In this document: in pieces, positions 1,891-55,898 of the stretch | How positions within the stretch are numbered: the first letter of the stretch is position 1 | How the letters are laid out: each line of letters opens with the position of its first letter | Assembly: GCA_013151745.1 (NCBI GenBank) | Contig: JAADHS010000012.1 | Coordinates: 4,354-68,353, forward strand | DNA length: 64,000 nt | Direction of reading: 5' to 3' | Source of the DNA: Gammaproteobacteria bacterium | Lineage (GTDB): Bacteria > Pseudomonadota > Gammaproteobacteria > JAADHS01 | Program-made: the position numbers and the translations under genes | The notes under the pieces: generated by a model | What the model saw: only the letters and a program-made list of their open reading frames with translations | Databases searched by the model: none | What the model was told of the DNA's origin: nothing

Positions 1891-4728
1891 TTATTTTGAA
1901 TTTATCGACAGTGCCTCTTCAATCAAATGGCGTTGTTGCATGATATGCTTTTTCAAGTAACCCACTGCAGGTGCTGCCGCCGCCGTGCGTCCTGCATAGC
2001 GTAGTTGTTGACCGACCTTGAGTTTATCTCTTATATGGTCTTGAATGAAGCCCCATGCCCCCTGATTTTGTGGTTCTTCCTGGCACCAGACAATGTCCTG
2101 GGCATTACAATATTGGGTCATGATGTCTTTTAATTCAATATCTGGAAATGGATATAATTGTTCAATTCTGACGATTGCGGTATTCAAAACGCCTTGTTTT
2201 TTCTGTTCCTGGAGTAAGTCAAAATAGACTTTACCGCTACAAAAAATGACTTTTTCGATTTCTGAAGGCGCGGTAACGTAGGTATCATCAATGATCAGTT
2301 GAAATGGGTGTGAAACCAGGTCGTCCAGTGTCGAGGTTGAATCTCGATGTCTTAATAAACTCTTGGGCGTCATGACGATCAAGGGTTTTCGATAGGGTCG
2401 CAACATCTGTCGGCGAATAAGATGAAACATTTGGCTGGGTAAGCTGGGTACGAGAACTTGAATATTGTCTTCAGCACAGAGTTGCAGGTATCTTTCCAGT
2501 CTTGCTGATGAGTGCTCTGGGCCTTGGCCATCGAAACCATGCGGCAGATACATCACCAGACTGCTCAGACGATTCCATTTAGAGTGGCCAGAGGATATAA
2601 ACTGGTCAATAACCACTTGAGCACCATTGGCAAAGTCGCCAAATTGAGCTTCCCATATAGTGAGGCATTTAGGGTCTGTCGCACTAAAACCATATTCAAA
2701 GCCCAGTACGGCCTCTTCAGAGAGCAGTGAATCAATGACGGTAAAGCTCGGTTTGCTGTCATTAACATAGCGTAGCGGGACATGGGCTGCCCCCGTTTTT
2801 TGATCATGGAGAACCGCATGACGATGAAAAAAAGTGCCTCTGCCGCTGTCCTGACCCGATAAACGTACAGAATAACCTTCTCTAAGCAGAGTGGCATAGG
2901 CCAGCGTTTCAGCAAAGCCCCAGTCCATCCTGGCCTCTCCGCTGGCCATATTCAGTCGCTCTTCCATAATTCGAGCGACCCTGGGGTGTAGAACGAAGCC
3001 CTCAGGAAGTAAGTTCAGTTGTTTTGCCAAAGTCGATACGACTTGTTGTGATGTTTGTGTATTAACAGCGTAGCGCCAGTGGGTTTCCGCATAGGGTGTC
3101 CAGTCGGTCATTACGGCTCGTGCTGTTGCATTGATGTTGGGTGCGGCGGTTTCACCGTGGTCTAGCAGTGCCCGATATTGTTGTTGCATCTGAGTAATGT
3201 CATCTTGTGTAACAACACCTTCTTTAACCAGATGTTGAGCATAGATATCGGGTACGGTTGCATGCTGTTTAATGATTGAATACATCATGGGTTGCGTTGC
3301 GGAGGGTTCATCTGCTTCACTGTGGCCGTGCCTGCGATAACAGAATAGATCGATGACAACATCTCTGCCAAATTCATTGCGAAAGTCAAAAGCAAGCTGT
3401 GCTGCAAAAAGCACGGCTTCCGGGTTGTCGCCATTGACGTGTAGTACCGGAGCTTGAACCATCCGAGCAACTTCAGTGCAATACGGAGTAGAGCGGGCAT
3501 CCAGATGATTGCTTGTGGTAAATCCGATTTGATTATTAATGATAATATGCAAGGCGCCACCAATGGTAAAGCCGCGTGCTTGAGACATGTTGAAGGTTTC
3601 CATGACGACGCCCTGACCCGCAAAAGCAGCATCGCCATGGATTAATATAGGCATGACTTCGGTGCGTTTTTTATCCTCTCTTCGGTGTTGTCGGGCGCGT
3701 ACAGAACCGGCGACGACAGGGCAGATGATTTCAAGATGTGACGGGTTAAAGGAGAGGGCAAGATGGAGGTCTCCGCCGTCTGTTTTAATGTTTGAAGAGA
3801 AACCTTGATGGTATTTGACATCACCTGAGCCTTCATTGGTACTGGGGTCAAAATGTCCTTCGAACTCTTGGAACAGCGTAGCAGGAGATTTACCCAATAT
3901 ATTGATCAATACGTTTAAACGACCGCGGTGTGCCATGCCCATGACCACTTCTTTTGTCCCGTTTTTTCCTGCGGATTGAAGGAGGTGGTCGAGCAGAGGA
4001 ATCAGGCTTTCACCGCCTTCCAGAGAAAAACGCTTTTGCCCAACATATTTGGTATGCAGGTATTTTTCCAGGCCCGACGCGGCAATAACACGAGATAAAA
4101 TATTGCGTTGTTGCGCCGGGTCAGGTCTCAATTTGGCGCGTGACGACTCAAGGCGTTGCTGGATCCAACGCTTTTGAGTGGTGCTGGAAATATGCATATA
4201 TTCAGCGCCAAGGTGGCCGCAATAGGTTTCTCTTAAATGATGTATGATATCTCGCAAAGTGGCTTGTTCGACGCCAGCCAGTGAGCCTGTATTAAATACC
4301 GTATCCATATCATTTTCGCTCAAACCGTGAGAGGCCGGGATCAGGTCAGGCAAAGGTGGCGATTTTTTGAGTGAAAGAGGGTCGGTTTTTGCTTCCTGGT
4401 GGCCGCGAAAGCGATAAGCATTGATGAGTTGTAACACGGCGACTTGTTTACTCTCAATAGATTCGATGACTTGGTTATAGTCTTGATGCGTTAAAGAACG
4501 AGGTCGGTGACCTTGAAAAACAAATTCATTACGGATAAGGGCATGATCAACGTCAGCAATGGGTGGGTCATTGGGTTTTTTGAACGTGTCAAAATAACTA
4601 CGCCAGTTTTCATCTATGTCGTTGGGGTTTGTTAAATAGTTGGCATACAGCTCTTCAATAAATGCAGCATTACCCGCAAATAAATAGCTACTGTCCAAAA
4701 AGTCTTGCATTCCGTTTTTGTTCTTCAC
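1891..4728 (-). CDS. sucA: 2-oxoglutarate dehydrogenase E1 component
   Basis: 945 aa with the typical SucA N-terminus (DSSYLFAGNAAFIEELY), a TPP-binding region and a transketolase-like C-terminal half. Confidence 0.95.
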   Translation of the reverse strand: MKNKNGMQDFLDSSYLFAGNAAFIEELYANYLTNPNDIDENWRSYFDTFKKPNDPPIADVDHALIRNEFVFQGHRPRSLTHQDYNQVIESIESKQVAVLQLINAYRFRGHQEAKTDPLSLKKSPPLPDLIPASHGLSENDMDTVFNTGSLAGVEQATLRDIIHHLRETYCGHLGAEYMHISSTTQKRWIQQRLESSRAKLRPDPAQQRNILSRVIAASGLEKYLHTKYVGQKRFSLEGGESLIPLLDHLLQSAGKNGTKEVVMGMAHRGRLNVLINILGKSPATLFQEFEGHFDPSTNEGSGDVKYHQGFSSNIKTDGGDLHLALSFNPSHLEIICPVVAGSVRARQHRREDKKRTEVMPILIHGDAAFAGQGVVMETFNMSQARGFTIGGALHIIINNQIGFTTSNHLDARSTPYCTEVARMVQAPVLHVNGDNPEAVLFAAQLAFDFRNEFGRDVVIDLFCYRRHGHSEADEPSATQPMMYSIIKQHATVPDIYAQHLVKEGVVTQDDITQMQQQYRALLDHGETAAPNINATARAVMTDWTPYAETHWRYAVNTQTSQQVVSTLAKQLNLLPEGFVLHPRVARIMEERLNMASGEARMDWGFAETLAYATLLREGYSVRLSGQDSGRGTFFHRHAVLHDQKTGAAHVPLRYVNDSKPSFTVIDSLLSEEAVLGFEYGFSATDPKCLTIWEAQFGDFANGAQVVIDQFISSGHSKWNRLSSLVMYLPHGFDGQGPEHSSARLERYLQLCAEDNIQVLVPSLPSQMFHLIRRQMLRPYRKPLIVMTPKSLLRHRDSTSTLDDLVSHPFQLIIDDTYVTAPSEIEKVIFCSGKVYFDLLQEQKKQGVLNTAIVRIEQLYPFPDIELKDIMTQYCNAQDIVWCQEEPQNQGAWGFIQDHIRDKLKVGQQLRYAGRTAAAAPAVGYLKKHIMQQRHLIEEALSINSK

Positions 4729-6671: not shown

Positions 6672-6895
6672 CCCATGGCGTTATGAATTTAGGTGTTAGC
6701 ACGTGCAAATAAGCCTTGGATTCGGTTTTTCCGACTGACGACTGCATGGATACAGGAGATAGCACCCAAAGAACTGGGTATAAATGCTCTACATCGCGGA
6801 TCAACTGCGTTTTCTAGGGTAAAAGTAACTTACCGAGAAAAAACCGAGAATGAGTGCCGGTGGACGTGAAAATGCCTCAATTCATAACGCCATGG
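6672..6895. repeat. Intergenic repeat element copy A (224 bp, 18-bp perfect terminal inverted repeats)
   Basis: CCCATGGCGTTATGAATT at 6672-6689 and its reverse complement AATTCATAACGCCATGGG at 6878-6895. Internal modules recur elsewhere: a TCGGTTTTTCCGA hairpin, CAGGAGATAGCACCCAAAGAACTGG, and GCTCTACATCGCGGATCAACTGCGTTTTCTAGG. Confidence 0.8.
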
Positions 6896-6945
6896 GTTGA
6901 TAGTCGTTTTATGAAATTATTGAACAACGTGGGAGTGATAATAGA

Positions 6946-19841: not shown

Positions 19842-20035
19842 ATTCTCAAATATGCCTGTGGCGTTTGAGATTTAGGTATTATGTCAATCCTGTTTATTTC
19901 ATGGTAAGGCGAAATGACGAGGTGTAGTAGCCCGCTATGACTAGGGGTTTCAACGCAGCCATAGCATGAAGAGGGCTGTAATTAAATCTAAATCTCAGGT
20001 GCCATGGGCATAGGCTAGTAAATGAGTGGATATCG

Positions 20036-30169: not shown

Positions 30170-30306
30170 TCTATATCCGTGGCGTTATAAATGTAGGTGC
30201 TAGCGCGTGTAGACGCGCTTTAGATCGGTTTTTCCGATTAAGGAAAAGCTGAAGATGAGGTACAGATGTGTGTGAAAAGATCTAAGTTTATAACGCCACG
30301 GGTATA
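30170..30306. repeat. Intergenic repeat element copy B (about 137 bp, terminal inverted repeats)
   Basis: ATATCCGTGGCGTTATAAA at 30173-30191 and TTTATAACGCCACGGGTATAT at 30287-30306. It shares the GGCGTTAT.AAT.TAGGTG.TAGC.CGTG and TCGGTTTTTCCGA modules with copy A. Confidence 0.75.
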
Positions 30307-31472: not shown

Positions 31473-31571
31473 TTTTTTCCGCATAGTTAGGCGGATCAAG
31501 AGCTTGTATCCAAGAAATCGGGTATCAATGCTCTACATCGTGGATCAACAGCGTTTTTTAGGTTAAATAGG
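31473..31571. repeat. Intergenic repeat element copy C
   Basis: TTTTTTCCGCATAGTTAGGCGGATCAAGAGCTTGTAT is shared with copy D. GGGTATCAATGCTCTACATCGTGGATCAACAGCGTTTTTTAGGTTAAATAGG is shared with copy A. Confidence 0.7.
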
Positions 31572-33162: not shown

Positions 33163-33909
33163 ATGATCCAATTGAACAAGCTTAGCGTGATCTATAATCG
33201 CGGTATATTGACGGCGCTGCATCCTACCACGATTGAATTTCGCCGTGGCGAGTTTACCGTTTTATTAGGTACTTCCGGGGCGGGAAAATCGACACTGTTA
33301 CGTAGTCTGAATTTGCTCAATACGCCGACCAGCGGTGAAGTGAGCGTAGCCGGTGTGTGCATCAACAATGCTCGGGCACTCCGTAATCATCGACGCAATA
33401 CCGCCATGATTTTTCAACAGCATCAATTAATGCGTCGGCAAACGGCACTGTATAATGTGCTTGCGGGGCGCCTGGGTTACTACTCTTCACTGCGCAGTTT
33501 GTTGCCTATGCGTGAGGTCGATCGACAATTGGCGTTGCACTGTTTGGAACGGGTGGGTCTGTTAGATAAGGCGCTGGAGCGGGTAGACTGTCTCAGTGGT
33601 GGCCAAATGCAGAGAGTGGGTATCGCTCGTGCTTTGGTGCAACAGCCCAAAGTGTTGCTTGCCGATGAGCCGGTGGCCAGCCTTGATCCGAGCTGCGCGC
33701 ATCAGGTGATGTCATTGTTACAAGGTCTCTGTGCAGAAAAAAATATGACTACCGTGGTGAGTCTTCATCAGGTGGAATTCGCCAAAATTTATGCTCAGCG
33801 TATTGTGGCGTTGGTCGAAGGGCAAGTGATCTTCGATGGTTGTGTTGATGAACTCACTGATGATATTGTCAAAAAAATATACTCGACACCGTTACTCGGG
33901 AGTTATTAA
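33163..33909 (+). CDS. phnC: Phosphonate ABC transporter ATP-binding protein
   Basis: 248 aa: Walker A GTSGAGKST, the ABC signature LSGGQMQRV, and Walker B LLADEP. Confidence 0.85.
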   Translation: MIQLNKLSVIYNRGILTALHPTTIEFRRGEFTVLLGTSGAGKSTLLRSLNLLNTPTSGEVSVAGVCINNARALRNHRRNTAMIFQQHQLMRRQTALYNVLAGRLGYYSSLRSLLPMREVDRQLALHCLERVGLLDKALERVDCLSGGQMQRVGIARALVQQPKVLLADEPVASLDPSCAHQVMSLLQGLCAEKNMTTVVSLHQVEFAKIYAQRIVALVEGQVIFDGCVDELTDDIVKKIYSTPLLGSY

Positions 33910-33910
33910 T

Positions 33911-34753
33911 TTGGTCAACAATATCAAATCTATTTTGTTGTTTTTGGCGATAATCTTATCTTGCTCATTGATGGCAGCCGATAATAATCCGACAACTATA
34001 AAAATAGCGCTGCTCCCCGATGAAGATGCGGCCACCTTGATTAAAAAACATCAGCGTTTCAAAGCCTACCTAACTGAGCACTTGGGGCGGGAAATCGAGT
34101 TATTGGTGACGACCGATTACTCGTCAATGATCGAGGCGATGCGCCATGCTCGTATTGATTTGGGGTATTTTGGTCCGTTAAGCTATGTCATTGCTCGCTC
34201 TCGCAGTAATATCGAGGCTTTCGCTGCTAAAACAAATCATGGCAGCTCGACTTATCAGGCAGTGGTGGTGGGTAGTGTTCGGAGGGGCGTGATGAGCTTA
34301 GATGAAATCAAAGGCGGTGATATGGCCTATGGAGATTTGGCTTCCACTTCGTCCCATCTGATTCCTAAAAAGATGCTGCTGGATGCCAAGTTGCAAGCGG
34401 GTAAGGATTACCAGGCACATTTTCTGGGGGCTCATGATGCGGTGGCGATGGCAGTGCAACGAGGCCATGCCTCGGCGGGTGGTTTATCGAAACCGATATT
34501 TGAAATGTTGCTAGAACGCGGTGTGATCGATGTTAATAAGGTGCGGGTTTTAGCTGTCTCAACGCCCTTTCCACAATACCCGTGGGCAATGCGCAGCGAT
34601 TTGAACCCGGTATTGAAGGCGCGCATCAAAAGGGCTTTTTATCAGCTACAGGATAAAAATATTCTCAAAACGATGAAGGCCGAAGGATTAGTACCGGTGA
34701 GCGATATCGATTATGACATTGTCCGTGAATTAAAATCGGCGTTGGATCTTTGA
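33911..34753 (+). CDS. phnD: Phosphonate ABC transporter substrate-binding protein
   Basis: The start is moved to the in-frame TTG at 33911, immediately after the phnC stop. Signal peptide, then ..IKIALLPDED.. and ..GYFGPLSY.. motifs typical of PhnD/SsuA-like binding proteins. Confidence 0.8.
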   Translation: MVNNIKSILLFLAIILSCSLMAADNNPTTIKIALLPDEDAATLIKKHQRFKAYLTEHLGREIELLVTTDYSSMIEAMRHARIDLGYFGPLSYVIARSRSNIEAFAAKTNHGSSTYQAVVVGSVRRGVMSLDEIKGGDMAYGDLASTSSHLIPKKMLLDAKLQAGKDYQAHFLGAHDAVAMAVQRGHASAGGLSKPIFEMLLERGVIDVNKVRVLAVSTPFPQYPWAMRSDLNPVLKARIKRAFYQLQDKNILKTMKAEGLVPVSDIDYDIVRELKSALDL

Positions 34754-35550
34754 TGTCTGTTTCCTACAATAAAATTCTCCAAAAAGAACGGCTAAAGCGA
34801 CGAAAACTAAGTTTTCAGCTTGTTTTGATCGCGCTGGTTATTGTTGTATGCGCCTATGTTTCGGAATTGTTCGATGGACAAAGACTTATAGCAGGTGTGC
34901 CCAGTCTGTTGCTGATCTTTAGCGAAAGTATCCCACCTGATTTTAGTGATTGGCAGAGCTGGCTTCGTCCACTGTTCGATACTCTGGCAATGAGTATTGC
35001 AGGCACGGCTTTAGCGATGCTGGTGGCTGTCCCATTGGGGGTATTGGCCGCTCGTAATACGACGCCGCATGTACTGGTTTATCAGTTAGTACGAGGCATG
35101 CTTAATTTATTGCGTTCGATACCGGAATTGATCATGGGTATTCTATTTGTTGCGGCAGTGGGTTTTGGTGTGCTGCCAGGGGTATTGGCGCTGGCCTTTC
35201 ACTCTATTGGTATGGTAGGAAAGTTTATCGCAGAAACCATCGAACACGCAGACCCTGGGGTGATCGAGGCCATTCGCGCCACCGGAGCCAGCTCTTTTCA
35301 GGTGATGATTCACGGTGTACTGTCGCAGGTCATTCCACAGATTTGTGATGTGACCCTCTATCGTTGGGAGTATAATTTTCGTGCCTCTACCGTGATGGGT
35401 ATGGTCGGTGCAGGTGGTATTGGTTTTGAACTGATGAGCGCCTTGCGTTTAATGAATTATGATGAAGTTAGTGCTATCTTGCTGCTGATTTTACTATTGG
35501 TGACTCTTGTCGATAGTTTGGGTGCGAGCTTGCGGGAAAAGATGAAATAA
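34750..35550 (+). CDS. phnE: Phosphonate ABC transporter permease
   Basis: 266 aa with an ATGA overlap to phnD, six TM helices and the binding-protein-dependent permease EAA-like motif (..EAIRATGAS..). Confidence 0.85.
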   Translation: MMSVSYNKILQKERLKRRKLSFQLVLIALVIVVCAYVSELFDGQRLIAGVPSLLLIFSESIPPDFSDWQSWLRPLFDTLAMSIAGTALAMLVAVPLGVLAARNTTPHVLVYQLVRGMLNLLRSIPELIMGILFVAAVGFGVLPGVLALAFHSIGMVGKFIAETIEHADPGVIEAIRATGASSFQVMIHGVLSQVIPQICDVTLYRWEYNFRASTVMGMVGAGGIGFELMSALRLMNYDEVSAILLLILLLVTLVDSLGASLREKMK

Positions 35551-35673
35551 TTCGGCATCGTATAACCTGAATTCATAAATTTCCCGGTATTACAAAATTA
35601 CTTGATTCTTTGTAACGATACCTGTGGCGTTTGAAATTTAGCGAGTCGTTACAATTAGTTTATTTACAGCTCC

Positions 35674-35862
35674 TAGGGGCCGTTCTCAATTAACTGGGAG
35701 AGTGCATTTTCTAGGAGTTTTCTGTTCTGACAAGGCAGTTTTTGTGCGCAATGCCAGACATTGTTTTTGTGCGCAATGCCAGACATTGCAAGGAAAAACT
35801 AACGCGGTCAGGGCTGAAAACCACTGAAAAGGAACTTTCCATGTTAATTGAGAACGCCCCCT
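35674..35862. repeat. 189-bp element with 21-bp terminal inverted repeats and an internal 25-bp tandem duplication, in the selD promoter region
   Basis: TAGGGGCCGTTCTCAATTAAC at 35674-35694 against the reverse complement of GTTAATTGAGAACGCCCCCTA at 35842-35862, with 1 mismatch and TA at both outer ends. TTTTTGTGCGCAATGCCAGACATTG is repeated in tandem at 35739-35763 and 35764-35788. Confidence 0.75.
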
Positions 35863-35891
35863 AAGTGTGGCTGAGATAAAAAAATAAGAGT

Positions 35892-36986
35892 ATGCTTAAT
35901 ATGTCACAGGAAGATATCGAAAAAATGGAAATGACAAGCAGCAAAAAAAAATTAGTTTATTTAACCGAATACAGCCATGGTGCGGGCTGTGGCTGCAAGA
36001 TCTCCCCAGCGTTTTTAGAAAAAATACTGCATAGTGAACAACCTGCTCCCGTTTTTCCTAACTTACTTGTAGGCTATGGTCATTGTGATGATGCTGCTGT
36101 GTTTGATCTCGGCGATGGCTCGTCAATGATTAGTACCACTGATTTTTTTATGCCTATAGTCGATGATCCTTTTGAGTTTGGCCAAATCTCGGCCACTAAT
36201 GCCATCAGCGATATTTATGCCATGGGGGGGACCCCTTCAATGGCGATTTCGATTTTCGGTTGGCCGATTAATAAACTGGGGCTGGACATTGCCGCACAAG
36301 TGATCGAAGGTGGACGCCGTGCTTGCCATAATGCGGGTATTCCCCTGGCGGGTGGGCATTCCATTGATACTCCGGAACCTATTTTTGGTTTGGCGGTCAC
36401 CGGGAGAGTGGAAAATCAACATTTAAAACGGAACGACCAGGCACAAGCCGGTTGCCAACTGTTTCTCACTAAACCTTTGGGTATCGGTATCCTCACCACC
36501 GCAGAAAAGAAAAAATTGCTGAAACCAGAGCATGCTCGTTTGGCGCCTGAAACCATGTGTCAGCTCAATAGTATAGGGGTTGCTCTTGCGGCTTTACCAG
36601 GCGTAAAAGCAATGACCGATGTCACCGGTTTTGGTTTGCTGGGTCATTTGCTGGAGATGTGTGAAGGCAGTGCGTTGCAGGCAAAAATTTGTTATGACCG
36701 GATACCCAAATTAGCGGAGATTGAACGCTACTTAGAGTTAGGTTGTTCCCCTGGTGGGGCACAACGTAATTTCGAGAGTTACAGCCATAAACTGGGCGAA
36801 ATGCCGACATTGCAGCAACAAATTTTATGTGATCCACAAACTTCTGGTGGTTTGTTGGTCGCTGTTCGTCCTGATGGTGTGGATGCTTTTTTAGAAGTCA
36901 CCCAAAAACATGCTTTACAGTTGACCTGTATCGGTGAATTCAGTGAACGTAGAGAGCGTGCCGGTTATTATGTCGAGGTGATATAA
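35892..36986 (+). CDS. selD: Selenide, water dikinase (selenophosphate synthetase), Cys-type
   Basis: 364 aa with the HGAGCGCK motif, Cys rather than Sec (no in-frame TGA), and an AIR-synthase-like fold. Confidence 0.9.
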
Positions 36987-36989
36987 AAA

Positions 36990-38096
36990 ATGCCTAAAAC
37001 GCTTCTTCCTCAACGTGATGACTATCGGCAACTGTTTCTGAATGAAACGCCATTGTTAGATGTTCGTGCACCCGTAGAGTATGAGTTAGGTGCCTTTCCT
37101 GTGACGCAAAACGTGCCAATAATTGATAACGATGAACGTCAAGCCATTGGTTTATGTTACAAGCAGAAAGGACAGGAGCATGCCATTGAACTGGGCTATC
37201 AACTCGTTAGTGGTGATCTCAAAGCACAGCGAATCGCAGCCTGGGTTGACTTTGTGCAGCAATATCGCAAAGGGGCTTTGTACTGTTTTCGAGGTGGTAT
37301 GCGTTCTGAAATTACTCAGCGCTGGATTTATGAGCAATCGGGTTTTATTTATCCCCGAATCAAAGGTGGCTACAAAGCCCTGCGCCATTTTCTGCTCAAT
37401 GAGCTGGATGTTTCAATAGCACAGCTTGATTTTACTCTACTTAGTGGGCGCACTGGTGTGGGTAAAACCAACTTGTTATATACGATGACCCGACAGGTTG
37501 ACCTCGAAGGTATCTATCGTCACTGTGGTTCGGCATTTGGCAAAATAGCACAGCAACAACCGAGTCAGATTGATATTGAAAACGAACTTTCTATTATTTT
37601 AATGAAGCATTGTCACTGGCAGCACAGCCATCTTTTATTAGAAGATGAATCTGCTAATATCGGTTCTCGGCGTATTCCTGATGTTTTGCTGGAAAAAATG
37701 GCGATGGCTCCCGTCGTTGTTTTGGAATCATCGCAGGATGATCGAGTTGAACTTATCTACCAAAAATATATTGTCGATTCCTGTCAACAACACCAAGCAC
37801 GGTATGGTATAGAACAAGGTGTTCGGTTATGGGTAGACAATTTAAGCTATGCCTTGTTAAAAATAAAACGTCGTTTAGGCGGTGCACGTTATGCTGATGC
37901 CAAAACTATGCTGGACGTAGCTTTAGCTAAACCATACGAACTCGCTATAGCAGAACACAAAACCTGGATCGCTTTTTTACTCAATGAATACTACGATACT
38001 ATGTATGATTACCAACTAAAAAATAAAGCTGATCGTGTACTGTTTAAAGGCAATAAGCAGGAAGTGAAAGCCTATTTTAAAAAATACGCTTTCTGA
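36990..38096 (+). CDS. mnmH: tRNA 2-selenouridine synthase
   Basis: 368 aa: N-terminal rhodanese domain (..LLDVRAPVEYELG..CFRGGMRS) plus a P-loop (SGRTGVGKT). It lies 3 bp after selD. Confidence 0.85.
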   Translation: MPKTLLPQRDDYRQLFLNETPLLDVRAPVEYELGAFPVTQNVPIIDNDERQAIGLCYKQKGQEHAIELGYQLVSGDLKAQRIAAWVDFVQQYRKGALYCFRGGMRSEITQRWIYEQSGFIYPRIKGGYKALRHFLLNELDVSIAQLDFTLLSGRTGVGKTNLLYTMTRQVDLEGIYRHCGSAFGKIAQQQPSQIDIENELSIILMKHCHWQHSHLLLEDESANIGSRRIPDVLLEKMAMAPVVVLESSQDDRVELIYQKYIVDSCQQHQARYGIEQGVRLWVDNLSYALLKIKRRLGGARYADAKTMLDVALAKPYELAIAEHKTWIAFLLNEYYDTMYDYQLKNKADRVLFKGNKQEVKAYFKKYAF

Positions 38097-53884: not shown

Positions 53885-54094
53885 TTTTTTACTCTAAGTG
53901 TTGGGCGTGTGTTAGGGTGACGGATGCGACGCCAAGCTTAATGCCTTGCGCGTTCGTTCAGCTCCGAAAAAGGACGTTATTTTAACCTGAAATTCATTTA
54001 AAAACAGAAAAATAGACGCTATTAGAGTATAAAAATATATACATAATAAATGAAGTGATTGTATCTTTTTGTTTTTAAATGAATTTTTTAGTTT

Positions 54095-54334: not shown

Positions 54335-54520
54335 AAAAACGTAGTTGATTCACGATGTAGAGTATTTACGTCTGGTTTTATTTTTATAAGTAGTTGATTT
54401 TTATATCTATGTGGGAAAATTGTGATCACCTTGTTGGTGCTTGAAATTTTCCCGCATAGTTAGGCGGATCAAAAGCTTGTATTATACATTGTGGATCAAC
54501 TGTATTTTTTAGATTTAATC
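54335..54520. repeat. Intergenic repeat element copy D (about 185 bp, imperfect terminal inverted repeats)
   Basis: AAAAACGTAGTTGATTCACGATGTAGAG at 54335-54362 against the reverse complement of TACATTGTGGATCAACTGTATTTTTT at 54485-54510. The internal module TTTTCCCGCATAGTTAGGCGGATCAAAAGCTTGTAT is shared with copy C. Confidence 0.7.
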
Positions 54521-54973: not shown

Positions 54974-55747
54974 GTGTTCCTTTTATTAACTCTTTCAATT
55001 CTTGTTAGCGGCTTCATTGTTTGCAACAAAAACCCTCATTATTATTTTAGGCTTCATCGTTATCACGGGCAGCACTTATACCTAAGAAGTGCCTATCTTG
55101 GTGTAATATCTTTATTATTATTCTCAATGACTGCTCTCCTGTGCAAGCAATTTTTCCCTTCGAGCACGGGGATCAATTTTGTCTCTGTAATGGAGTCTTT
55201 TTTAGACGATGTGTTTACAAAAAATGACGAAAATTTAACATTATACTCATGGATGATTATTCTCTCCGTTGGAACTATTTTAACGGCCTATCTGTGGTGC
55301 TTTTTGACATGGCTTAGGCTGGGCTTCGGTTATAAATCCAGAGAAAGCGCAAAAGCAAATATTATGTATGATTTACTAAAAGACAGTCCGTTGGATAAAC
55401 TGTTATTCATGGCCAGTATTGATGAAGCTCCGGTACTTTTGACGTTACAGTCAAGAAAAGTTTATGTGGGATACATCACTTCTCTTGGTGAACCTAATGA
55501 AACTGAAGGCATGGATCAGGAAATAACCATAATCCCTCAAGTAAGTGGGTATAGAATGGAAGAAACATTAGAAGTGGCGTTTAATACTCAATACAATAAT
55601 CACGATGTAAAAGTAGATCTGGTGATTCGGCAAGAACAAATACTCTCCGCCACATTATTCGATTATTCAGCTTATAGCACATTGAATCCACCTGCTGAGG
55701 AAACTCCTATTCAACAAAAGTTGGACTTAGGATCTGTAAATAAATAA
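54974..55747 (+). CDS. Hypothetical membrane protein in an AT-rich segment
   Basis: 257 aa by the GTG start, with no clear RBS, so the start is uncertain. Three hydrophobic helices, then a C-terminal soluble region of about 140 aa. Codon usage is visibly AT-skewed relative to its neighbours. Confidence 0.4.
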   Translation: MFLLLTLSILVSGFIVCNKNPHYYFRLHRYHGQHLYLRSAYLGVISLLLFSMTALLCKQFFPSSTGINFVSVMESFLDDVFTKNDENLTLYSWMIILSVGTILTAYLWCFLTWLRLGFGYKSRESAKANIMYDLLKDSPLDKLLFMASIDEAPVLLTLQSRKVYVGYITSLGEPNETEGMDQEITIIPQVSGYRMEETLEVAFNTQYNNHDVKVDLVIRQEQILSATLFDYSAYSTLNPPAEETPIQQKLDLGSVNK

Positions 55748-55898
55748 CCTGGCATTTAAACCTTAATCTCTACGGGTATAGTATTCCGTCTCCGGTATTG
55801 CTCAAAGAATGACATACAACGAGTATGTTCACTTTGAGACGAATACCAGGTTATTTATTGACCGCCTCTTAGGTTCACCGTAAATTGAGTTATACATT

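Follow-up and report, generated by a model that had tools for sequence, protein, structure and literature searches.

Directly upstream of selD, in a 64-kb stretch of gammaproteobacterial DNA (the window, by which we mean the whole stretch that was analysed), lies a 190-bp element with inverted ends. It is very probably a MITE, or miniature inverted-repeat transposable element, of the IS5 type, IS427-group-like in character, that inserted at this place, and not a native operator of the gene. Four observations carry this reading, and on sequence comparison we count them as established: the element belongs to a dispersed family, its ends are common to autonomous IS5-family elements, it is absent from the corresponding place in relatives, and its 25-bp tandem duplication is private to the window copy. 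A preliminary description of the window had offered two options, namely a MITE inserted into the selD-mnmH promoter, or that promoter or operator itself. The former is borne out: the element has family members dispersed over other loci, with TA flanks and conserved ends, and relatives lack it at their orthologous selD loci. The latter fails, both because the sequence is missing from those loci and because further copies stand at unrelated places.

The element and its boundaries

The element occupies window positions 35674-35863, or 186 bp once both TAs are excluded, and its parts are the following.

35674-35863, no strand: MITE including both TAs; boundaries from the repeats, aligned to the 163-165-bp copies in the Nitrospirota metagenome-assembled genome (MAG) OFTM336 (loci L067 and L061)
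35674-35675, no strand: left TA, presumed 2-bp target duplication, with the flank C-TA; at 87 of 101 family ends a TA comes first, itself usually preceded by C or T
35676-35694, plus strand: left terminal inverted repeat GGGGCCGTTCTCAATTAAC; its first 18 nt equal the right end, reverse-complemented, of complete insertion sequences (ISs) in L116, L115 and L118
35738-35787, plus strand: exact 25-bp tandem duplication at the hairpin tip, private to the window copy; a 25-column gap in four of four other copies
35843-35861, minus strand: right terminal inverted repeat, read on this strand as GGGGGCGTTCTCAATTAAC (the family consensus) and including TTGAGA (35848-35853), which faces selD; from the sequence
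35862-35863, no strand: right TA, with the flank TA-A and the inferred target CTAA; from the sequence and the comparison of family flanks

The left arm, TAGGGGCCGTTCTCAATTAAC, extends from 35674 to 35694 and recurs as its reverse complement, with 1 mismatch, at 35843-35863. The preliminary description had reported a 189-bp element with near-perfect 21-bp inverted repeats; the repeats are real, and only the length and the placement of the right arm, given there as 35842-35862, had to be corrected. It had also reported a TA dinucleotide at both outer ends, which is indeed present (35674-75 and 35862-63), and a 25-bp tandem duplication, which is exact but had been placed at 35739-35788. The inverted arms reach 38 nt at 84% complementarity, and over its whole length the left half of the element matches the reverse-complemented right half at 73% identity. 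The duplication at the hairpin tip consists of two 100% identical tandem copies of the unit GTTTTTGTGCGCAATGCCAGACATT. Folded as RNA, the element region gives a single long hairpin of -98.8 kcal/mol, compared with -59.3 +/- 4.6 kcal/mol for shuffled sequences (z = -8.6), and the element contains no open reading frame (ORF) of 50 aa or more.

When up to 3 mismatches were allowed, the 19-mer core of the arms was found at just 2 sites in the 64 kb, namely the two arms, against an expectation of 0.01; none of 100 shuffles gave at least 2 matches. Judged by eye, the ends of the element bear at best a partial resemblance to attC and IHF sites.

Copies with the same interior and a private duplication

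When the element was compared with the family loci by BLAST, four of them, on three contigs of the Nitrospirota MAG OFTM336 and with differing flanks, proved to share its interior. Two of these copies are full-length (L067 7182-7346, 165 bp; L061 7235-7397, 163 bp) and share 77% identity with the full length of the window copy when the 25-bp duplication is counted as a gap. The third is partial, its left 90 bp being 91% identical to the window copy (L098), and the fourth is cut by the edge of the locus (L022), so that identities to the window copy over the aligned parts range from 77 to 91%. A scan of metagenomes with a subfamily-specific 28-mer returned a single truncated 58-bp copy, and a Nitrospira assembly (L090) holds a weaker match to the right arm of the element.

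The 25-bp duplication is absent from all four OFTM336 copies, where the alignment shows a 25-column gap, and from the truncated metagenomic copy. Because every other copy does without it, the family unit must be about 165 bp and the duplication private to the window copy, where it arose most simply by replication slippage at the hairpin tip. This removes the suggestion in the preliminary description that the 25-bp repeat is the duplicated half-site of an operator. The three full-length copies have the hairpin in common, but a covariation analysis of them did not point to selection on it (2 of 62 pairs covary, with a covariation term of +1.23). It appears mildly unusual that one end sequence is spread over several phyla, and likewise that a single non-autonomous subfamily occurs in both a gammaproteobacterium and Nitrospirota MAGs, as binned; the latter, given the MAG binning, would imply transfer between phyla and subsequent mobilisation by resident IS5-type transposases.

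A dispersed family and its target site

The preliminary description had proposed looking for further copies of the end sequence, and these do exist at loci in other assemblies, the source DNA holding one element copy within the 64 kb. A family scan by exact match to the 19-mer GGGGSCGTTCTCAATTAAC, with one genome per species, gave 101 loci in 17 assemblies, in which TA followed by GGGGGCGTTCTCAATTAAC is the end sequence that closes short family elements. Three Ca. Thiosymbion symbionts account for 41, 11 and 10 of the loci, many of them 50-75 bp from contig ends, as expected because repeats break assemblies, and a Granulosicoccaceae MAG accounts for 12. The rest of the loci come from several gammaproteobacterial MAGs, from Sansalvadorimonas, from a MAG of Shewanella, from three Nitrospirota assemblies and from a Chloroflexota (Ardenticatenaceae) MAG. 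Besides the window, 25 loci have an inverted partner for the end, and the elements so delimited measure 51-371 bp and have several unrelated interiors.

Where TA precedes the family end (87 of 101), the base before it is C (about 80%) or T, and the right TA is usually followed by G, in three elements by A. The insertion context is thus YTA-...-TAR, mostly CTAG. Positions -3 and +3 are not always complementary, since L067 and the window read CTAA while L011 and L069 read TTAG, and these bases were therefore contributed by the target and do not belong to the element. Of the elements, three read TAA on the right, yet their left end retains five G (GGGGC in the window), which favours a 2-bp TA duplication over duplication of the 4-bp YTAR; a model with a 4-bp CTAG duplication was dropped on account of these TAA-flanked elements (n = 3). 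The TA at both ends here and at 87 of the 101 family ends is taken as the presumed target-site duplication, but TA is its own reverse complement.

Many of the Thiosymbion flanks are themselves repeats, 85-95% identical between loci (for example L042, L050, L086, L017 and L018), and the MITEs of these symbionts appear either to sit inside another repeat family or to belong to a larger composite repeat. Mini forms of about 33 bp occur at six loci (L003, L012, L021, L048, L084 and L090), where one end is followed directly by (C)GCCCCCTA to form a small hairpin; these may be internal-deletion derivatives or excision remnants. At L095 (6614-7355) an IS of about 742 bp, of the IS1595 family (ISXO2-like), is nested 20 nt into a MITE copy.

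A scan of IMG/VR viral contigs with the end 19-mer or a 31-mer spanning it had 0 matches. Against plasmids, blastn of the 31-mer gave only chance 19/20 matches in an H-NS gene, and the whole element gave no match. No description of the family was found in literature searches, which were not aimed at this family, Rfam has no entry for it, and the accessions of the related assemblies were not found mentioned in the literature. The MITE family thus appears to be undescribed.

The parent insertion sequence probably belongs to the IS5 family

One family member, a 265-bp MITE (L034), matched MITEs on Halomonas and Magnetococcus replicons that have the related ends GGGCCTGTTGACGTTTCA in CTAG contexts. 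This related end in turn matched annotated IS5-family ISs, for example an 856-bp element on an Aeromonas caviae plasmid, which has the flanks gCTA-GGGG...CCCC-TAGg and encodes a 249-aa transposase with DUF4096 and DDE_Tnp_1 domains. When this transposase was compared with all loci by tblastn, the last 50 transposase residues were found at L029 (3048-3197, minus strand), where the C-terminus stops 16 nt inside an exact MITE end (at 3032); an IS66-family element (L029 3196-4136) has destroyed the remainder of this parent element. Homologues of the L029 fragment led to complete ISs at L116, at L115 (the same IS) and at L118 (a relative).

The IS at L116 (282-1112) is 831 bp long and reads ccCTA-GGGAGCGTTCTCAATTAAC...CTTAATTGAGAACGGCCCC-TAGc. 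Its right end, reverse-complemented, is GGGGCCGTTCTCAATTAAG and is identical over 18 nt to the left arm in the window, including the GGGGCC variant. The ends of the ISs at L116, L115 and L118 differ by 0-2 nt from MITE ends, except that the left end at L118 differs more. Two ORFs, of 122 aa (DUF4096) and 113 aa (DDE_Tnp_1), are joined in the L116 IS at an A8 slippery run, and the conceptually fused 250-aa transposase scores 304 bits on the NCBIfam model NF033580, 'IS5 family transposase', for which the cut-off is 110. Relatives that are 72-74% identical are found on Pseudomonas veronii and Marinobacter plasmids; these are 829-833 bp long, begin with GGGGGCGTTCTCA or GGGAACGTTCTCA and are flanked by CTA...TAG. 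Every transposase that is physically associated with these ends (L029, L115, L116, L118, L121 and L122) belongs to the IS5 family and has the DUF4096 and DDE_Tnp_1 domains. The IS427 group of this family is described as comprising elements of 832-865 bp with two overlapping, frameshifted ORFs and 2-bp direct repeats (PMC3281130). The parent of the MITE family would thus seem to be an IS5-family IS of IS427-group type, not an IS630/Tc1-mariner element.

The ORFs lying inward of unpaired ends, at about 24 loci, were also considered as parents and were rejected, as they proved to be unrelated genes, spurious high-GC frames, an IS1595-type IS (L095) and an IS66 element (L029). Two of the related MITEs, at L112 2402-2670 (Halomonas sp. 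PA16-9) and at L111 2468-2674 (Ca. Magnetococcus massalia plasmid), have the ends GGGCCTGTTGACGTTTCA or GGCTCTGTTGACATTTCA in CTAG or CTAA contexts. Their interiors partly resemble the MITE at L034, and interiors are therefore common to different end variants.

The selD locus in relatives

The UvrC and SelD encoded in the window are identical to NOY70908.1 and NOY70924.1 of a gammaproteobacterial MAG. Exact-protein look-ups of the window SelD, in a 364-aa and a 351-aa version, gave no match, and relatives were reached by a SelD homology search. The same species was sampled a second time (L102, Logan SRR25425417), and there the element occupies the corresponding position; its right 58 bp are present, on a contig that begins inside it. 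In a sister species (L103, L104, L119 and L120) the gene order is that of the window, DUF1499, phnC, phnD, phnE, selD, mnmH and arsC, and the flanking genes are 92-93% identical. The phnE-selD spacer of the sister species, 273 bp long and identical in all four assemblies (L119 2734-3006), contains no copy of the element and no element ends. In further relatives, whose SelD is 81-84% identical, the spacers are 61-78 bp long and are likewise without the element.

Weighing the explanations

Several observations weigh against an IS5-type MITE insertion. The spacer of the sister species aligns with that of the window over the first 9 and last 33 nt only, so that the absence of the element is clear while the exact empty site cannot be reconstructed; it would presumably read ...CAGCTCCTAAGTGTGG.... 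The comparison of related selD upstream regions proposed in the preliminary description thus confirmed that relatives do not have the element but did not recover an empty site with the TA retained. Given that the two spacers are unalignable despite flanking genes that are 92-93% identical, the spacer seems to have been replaced in one or both lineages. The joined flanks of the 25 paired elements were also searched for in all fetched loci; no junction was spanned and no filled/empty pair was found. All three Sansalvadorimonas copies (L024, L053 and L055) are flanked by CCA...TGG, not CTA...TAG, and at L053 the flank change is symmetric on both sides, unlike what a TA target duplication predicts. 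The window itself holds only one copy of the element and, by tblastn with the parent transposase, no homologue of that protein, and any activity in this genome would therefore be conjectural. The similarity between the MITE and the ISs is confined to the 18-19-bp ends, the interior of the MITE being unrelated to the IS. Finally, the placement of the parent as IS427-group-like is a provisional one, judged from size, ORF layout and 2-bp repeats.

The preliminary description had likened the TA ends to the target-site duplication of Tc1/mariner/IS630-type MITEs, a reading in which the element would be mobilised by an IS630-family (DDE_3) transposase. This would account for the TA at both ends and for the CTAG target preference, since IS630, too, targets the TA of CTAG and leaves it duplicated (Tenzen and Ohtsubo 1991, as cited in PMC2170065), and the pneumococcal RUP offers a precedent of an IS630-derived MITE (PMC2229807). 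However, the IS427-group elements also give 2-bp repeats and share the TA/CTAG pattern, so these features do not discriminate; in bacteria TA flanks alone are no signature of Tc1/mariner/IS630 elements because IS427-type IS5 elements look alike. As all transposases found with these ends are IS5-family DDE_Tnp_1 proteins and none of the 101 ends proved to have an IS630-type gene as neighbour, we regard an IS630 origin as highly unlikely. Still less probable is that the element is native DNA serving selD-mnmH as a long palindromic operator or as a promoter, one half-site being duplicated. Its position, its strong dyad symmetry and the -35-like TTGAGA that faces selD from the right arm all suit such a role, but the sequence is absent from orthologous selD loci outside the same species, an absence that refutes the operator idea, and it recurs at unrelated loci of a Nitrospirota MAG, where the 25-bp repeat is missing; nor was a sigma-70-like promoter predicted on the selD (plus) strand between 35450 and 36000. 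That the element is a REPIN, a REP doublet that a RAYT (IS200/IS605-like) transposase mobilises, or else another kind of structured RNA gene, is equally hard to credit. It is a long hairpin outside genes and its family has a short 33-bp palindromic form, as a REPIN might, but its 19-bp arm is not self-complementary, its TA flanks lie in YTAR contexts and its ends match DDE-type ISs. The Rfam 15 covariance models find only three tRNAs in the window at gathering scores, and even at E <= 1 the region 35450-36000 yields only chance-level snoRNA matches, none of which overlaps the element.

There is also the possibility, in our judgement an unlikely one, that the MITE has been co-opted, its hairpin of about 80 bp serving as an RNase III site, a stabiliser or a partial terminator, or its right end supplying the -35 of a hybrid promoter, so that expression of selD-mnmH depends on it. 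The hairpin is very stable, the genes are 61-78 bp apart in relatives, which makes co-transcription plausible, the element is present in two samples of the species (the window and L102), and the Correia/NEMIS elements provide a precedent for RNase III processing and promoter effects (PMC2229807). On the other hand, TTGAGA has no acceptable -10 at 16-18 nt downstream, no intrinsic terminator is predicted between 35450 and 36000, the covariation analysis lends no support, and an IS427-group IS tested in Paracoccus did not activate the downstream gene. The stronger proposal, in which the MITE is fixed in the species and its hairpin or -35-like hexamer sets the expression of selD-mnmH or uncouples these genes from the putative selenium-related transporter, seems to us improbable to much the same degree.

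Insertion of an IS5-type MITE would proceed as follows. A non-coding foldback element of roughly 165 bp, which gained its 25-bp tandem duplication privately, would be bound and cleaved at its 19-bp ends by a DDE transposase of the IS5 family (IS427-group-like), which an IS of about 830 bp with the same ends would provide in trans. It would have inserted at the TA inside a YTAR site (here CTAA), with duplication of the TA, and so have landed in the spacer between the phnCDE-like transporter and selD-mnmH, a spacer that also appears to hold a remnant of a second MITE family. If transcription of the transporter reads through to selD, an RNA hairpin of roughly 80 bp could affect processing or polarity.

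Comparison with known elements

The ISs that share the MITE ends (L116, L115, L118, L121 and L122) have 18-19-bp inverted ends starting with GGG and an IS5-family transposase (NF033580). Their length of 829-833 bp, two ORFs with a frameshift at an A-run and CTA...TAG flanks, which fit a 2-bp repeat, resemble the IS427 group (IS1248, ISPpa2, ISPaes1; PMC3281130). The window element, unlike these, is non-coding and has only the ends in common with them. A parallel is provided by the IS5-family MITEs of Porphyromonas gingivalis (BrickBuilt and MITE239/293/464/700) and by the Neisseria ATR (PMC4596501), whose ends match resident IS5-family ISs and whose interiors are unrelated; BrickBuilt and the 464 element also contain internal tandem direct repeats (PMC4596501). 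The sequences differ, however, as the P. gingivalis end is GAGACCTTTGCA and the end here is GGGGGCGTTCTCAATTAAC, and BrickBuilt has a minisatellite that varies across copies, where we find a single private duplication. IS5-derived MITEs, some with internal tandem repeats, are thus already known, and the window element is a further example.

The Correia/NEMIS elements of Neisseria, ERIC and RUP (PMC2229807) are likewise intergenic foldback elements of 100-200 bp with inverted ends and a terminal TA, and their transcripts form long stem-loops able to affect neighbouring genes (PMC2229807). They have no sequence similarity to the window element, and RUP is assigned to IS630-Spn1, the window element to an IS5-family IS; any RNase III, IHF or promoter activity of the window family would be hypothetical. 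With the IS630/Tc1-mariner elements (IS630, ISY100; PMC2170065) the family shares insertion at TA, IS630 preferring CTAG, and, presumably, duplication of the TA. Those elements encode a DDE_3 transposase with a helix-turn-helix, as opposed to DUF4096 and DDE_Tnp_1, and no IS630-type element with the present ends was found.

The element is best masked as a MITE in annotation and not read as a regulatory site of selD. As the family is abundant in the marine symbiont Ca. Thiosymbion and in Granulosicoccaceae and Nitrospirota assemblies, often at contig ends, its consensus would aid both assembly and annotation. Should it prove true that the insertion alters selD-mnmH expression, this would be another case of a MITE rewiring an operon.

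Neighbouring genes and the possible effect on selD

The element stands between the following genes, with an end-like remnant beside it.

34750-35550, plus strand: phnE-type ABC permease, the last gene of a phnC-D-E-like transporter (TIGR01097, 299 bits)
35624-35642, plus strand: remnant GTGGCGTTTGAAATTTAGC, resembling a solo end of a second MITE family and lying 31 nt upstream of the element (6 pattern matches in the window, 0.06 expected)
35931-36986, plus strand: selD, with the probable true start at 35931 (longest ORF from 35892); NF002098, 547 bits, and starts of homologues
36990-38096, plus strand: mnmH (selU), tRNA 2-selenouridine synthase (NF008751, 460 bits)

The start of selD that is conserved in homologues is ATGACAAGC at 35931; homologues have about 352 aa and the NCBI SelD call has 351 aa (NOY70924.1), and 35931 is accordingly the probable start. 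The preliminary description had placed the right repeat 30 bp before the selD ATG. The repeat is indeed close upstream, but 28 nt separate the end of the element from the ATG with which the longest ORF begins (35892), and 67 nt separate it from the conserved start.

The phnC/D/E-like genes occupy 33163-35550, and their binding protein scores 150 bits on TIGR04553, 'putative selenate ABC transporter substrate-binding protein', which is short of the cut-off of 250. At least three related lineages keep the order transporter-selD-mnmH, the spacers measuring 61-273 bp, and the transporter together with selD-mnmH is a candidate operon for selenium uptake and utilisation. This order, with the very short spacers in closer relatives, makes co-transcription plausible, though unproven. 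If the element is transcribed, its long hairpin in the mRNA could be a substrate of RNase III. On balance we infer that the element is a tolerated passenger insertion and not a selD-specific regulator.

The remnant of a second family in the same spacer suggests that small mobile elements have turned this spacer over more than once.

Other repeats in the window

Two further foldback, MITE-like elements, at 6672-6896 (225 bp) and 30172-30306 (135 bp), share a different end, GTGGCGTTATRAATKTAGG, the pattern of which has 6 matches in the window against 0.06 expected. The ends of this second family are loosely like the end of the selD MITE (GGCGTT...AAT.TA). Solo copies of a second end variant, GTGGCGTTTGARATTTAG, stand at 19858-19876, between tRNA-Gly and tRNA-Cys, and at 35624-35642, and look like remnants of older insertions. 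A stretch of 33-48 nt within the 6672-6896 element (6776-6823) recurs at two further places (31520-31567 and 54336-54368) with 88-90% identity, giving a third small repeat family. Two other inverted repeats were noted: at 53990-54086, just past the start of the EF-G gene, with 25-nt arms at 92% that are 47 nt apart, and at 55736-55862, with 21-nt arms at 90% that are 85 nt apart.

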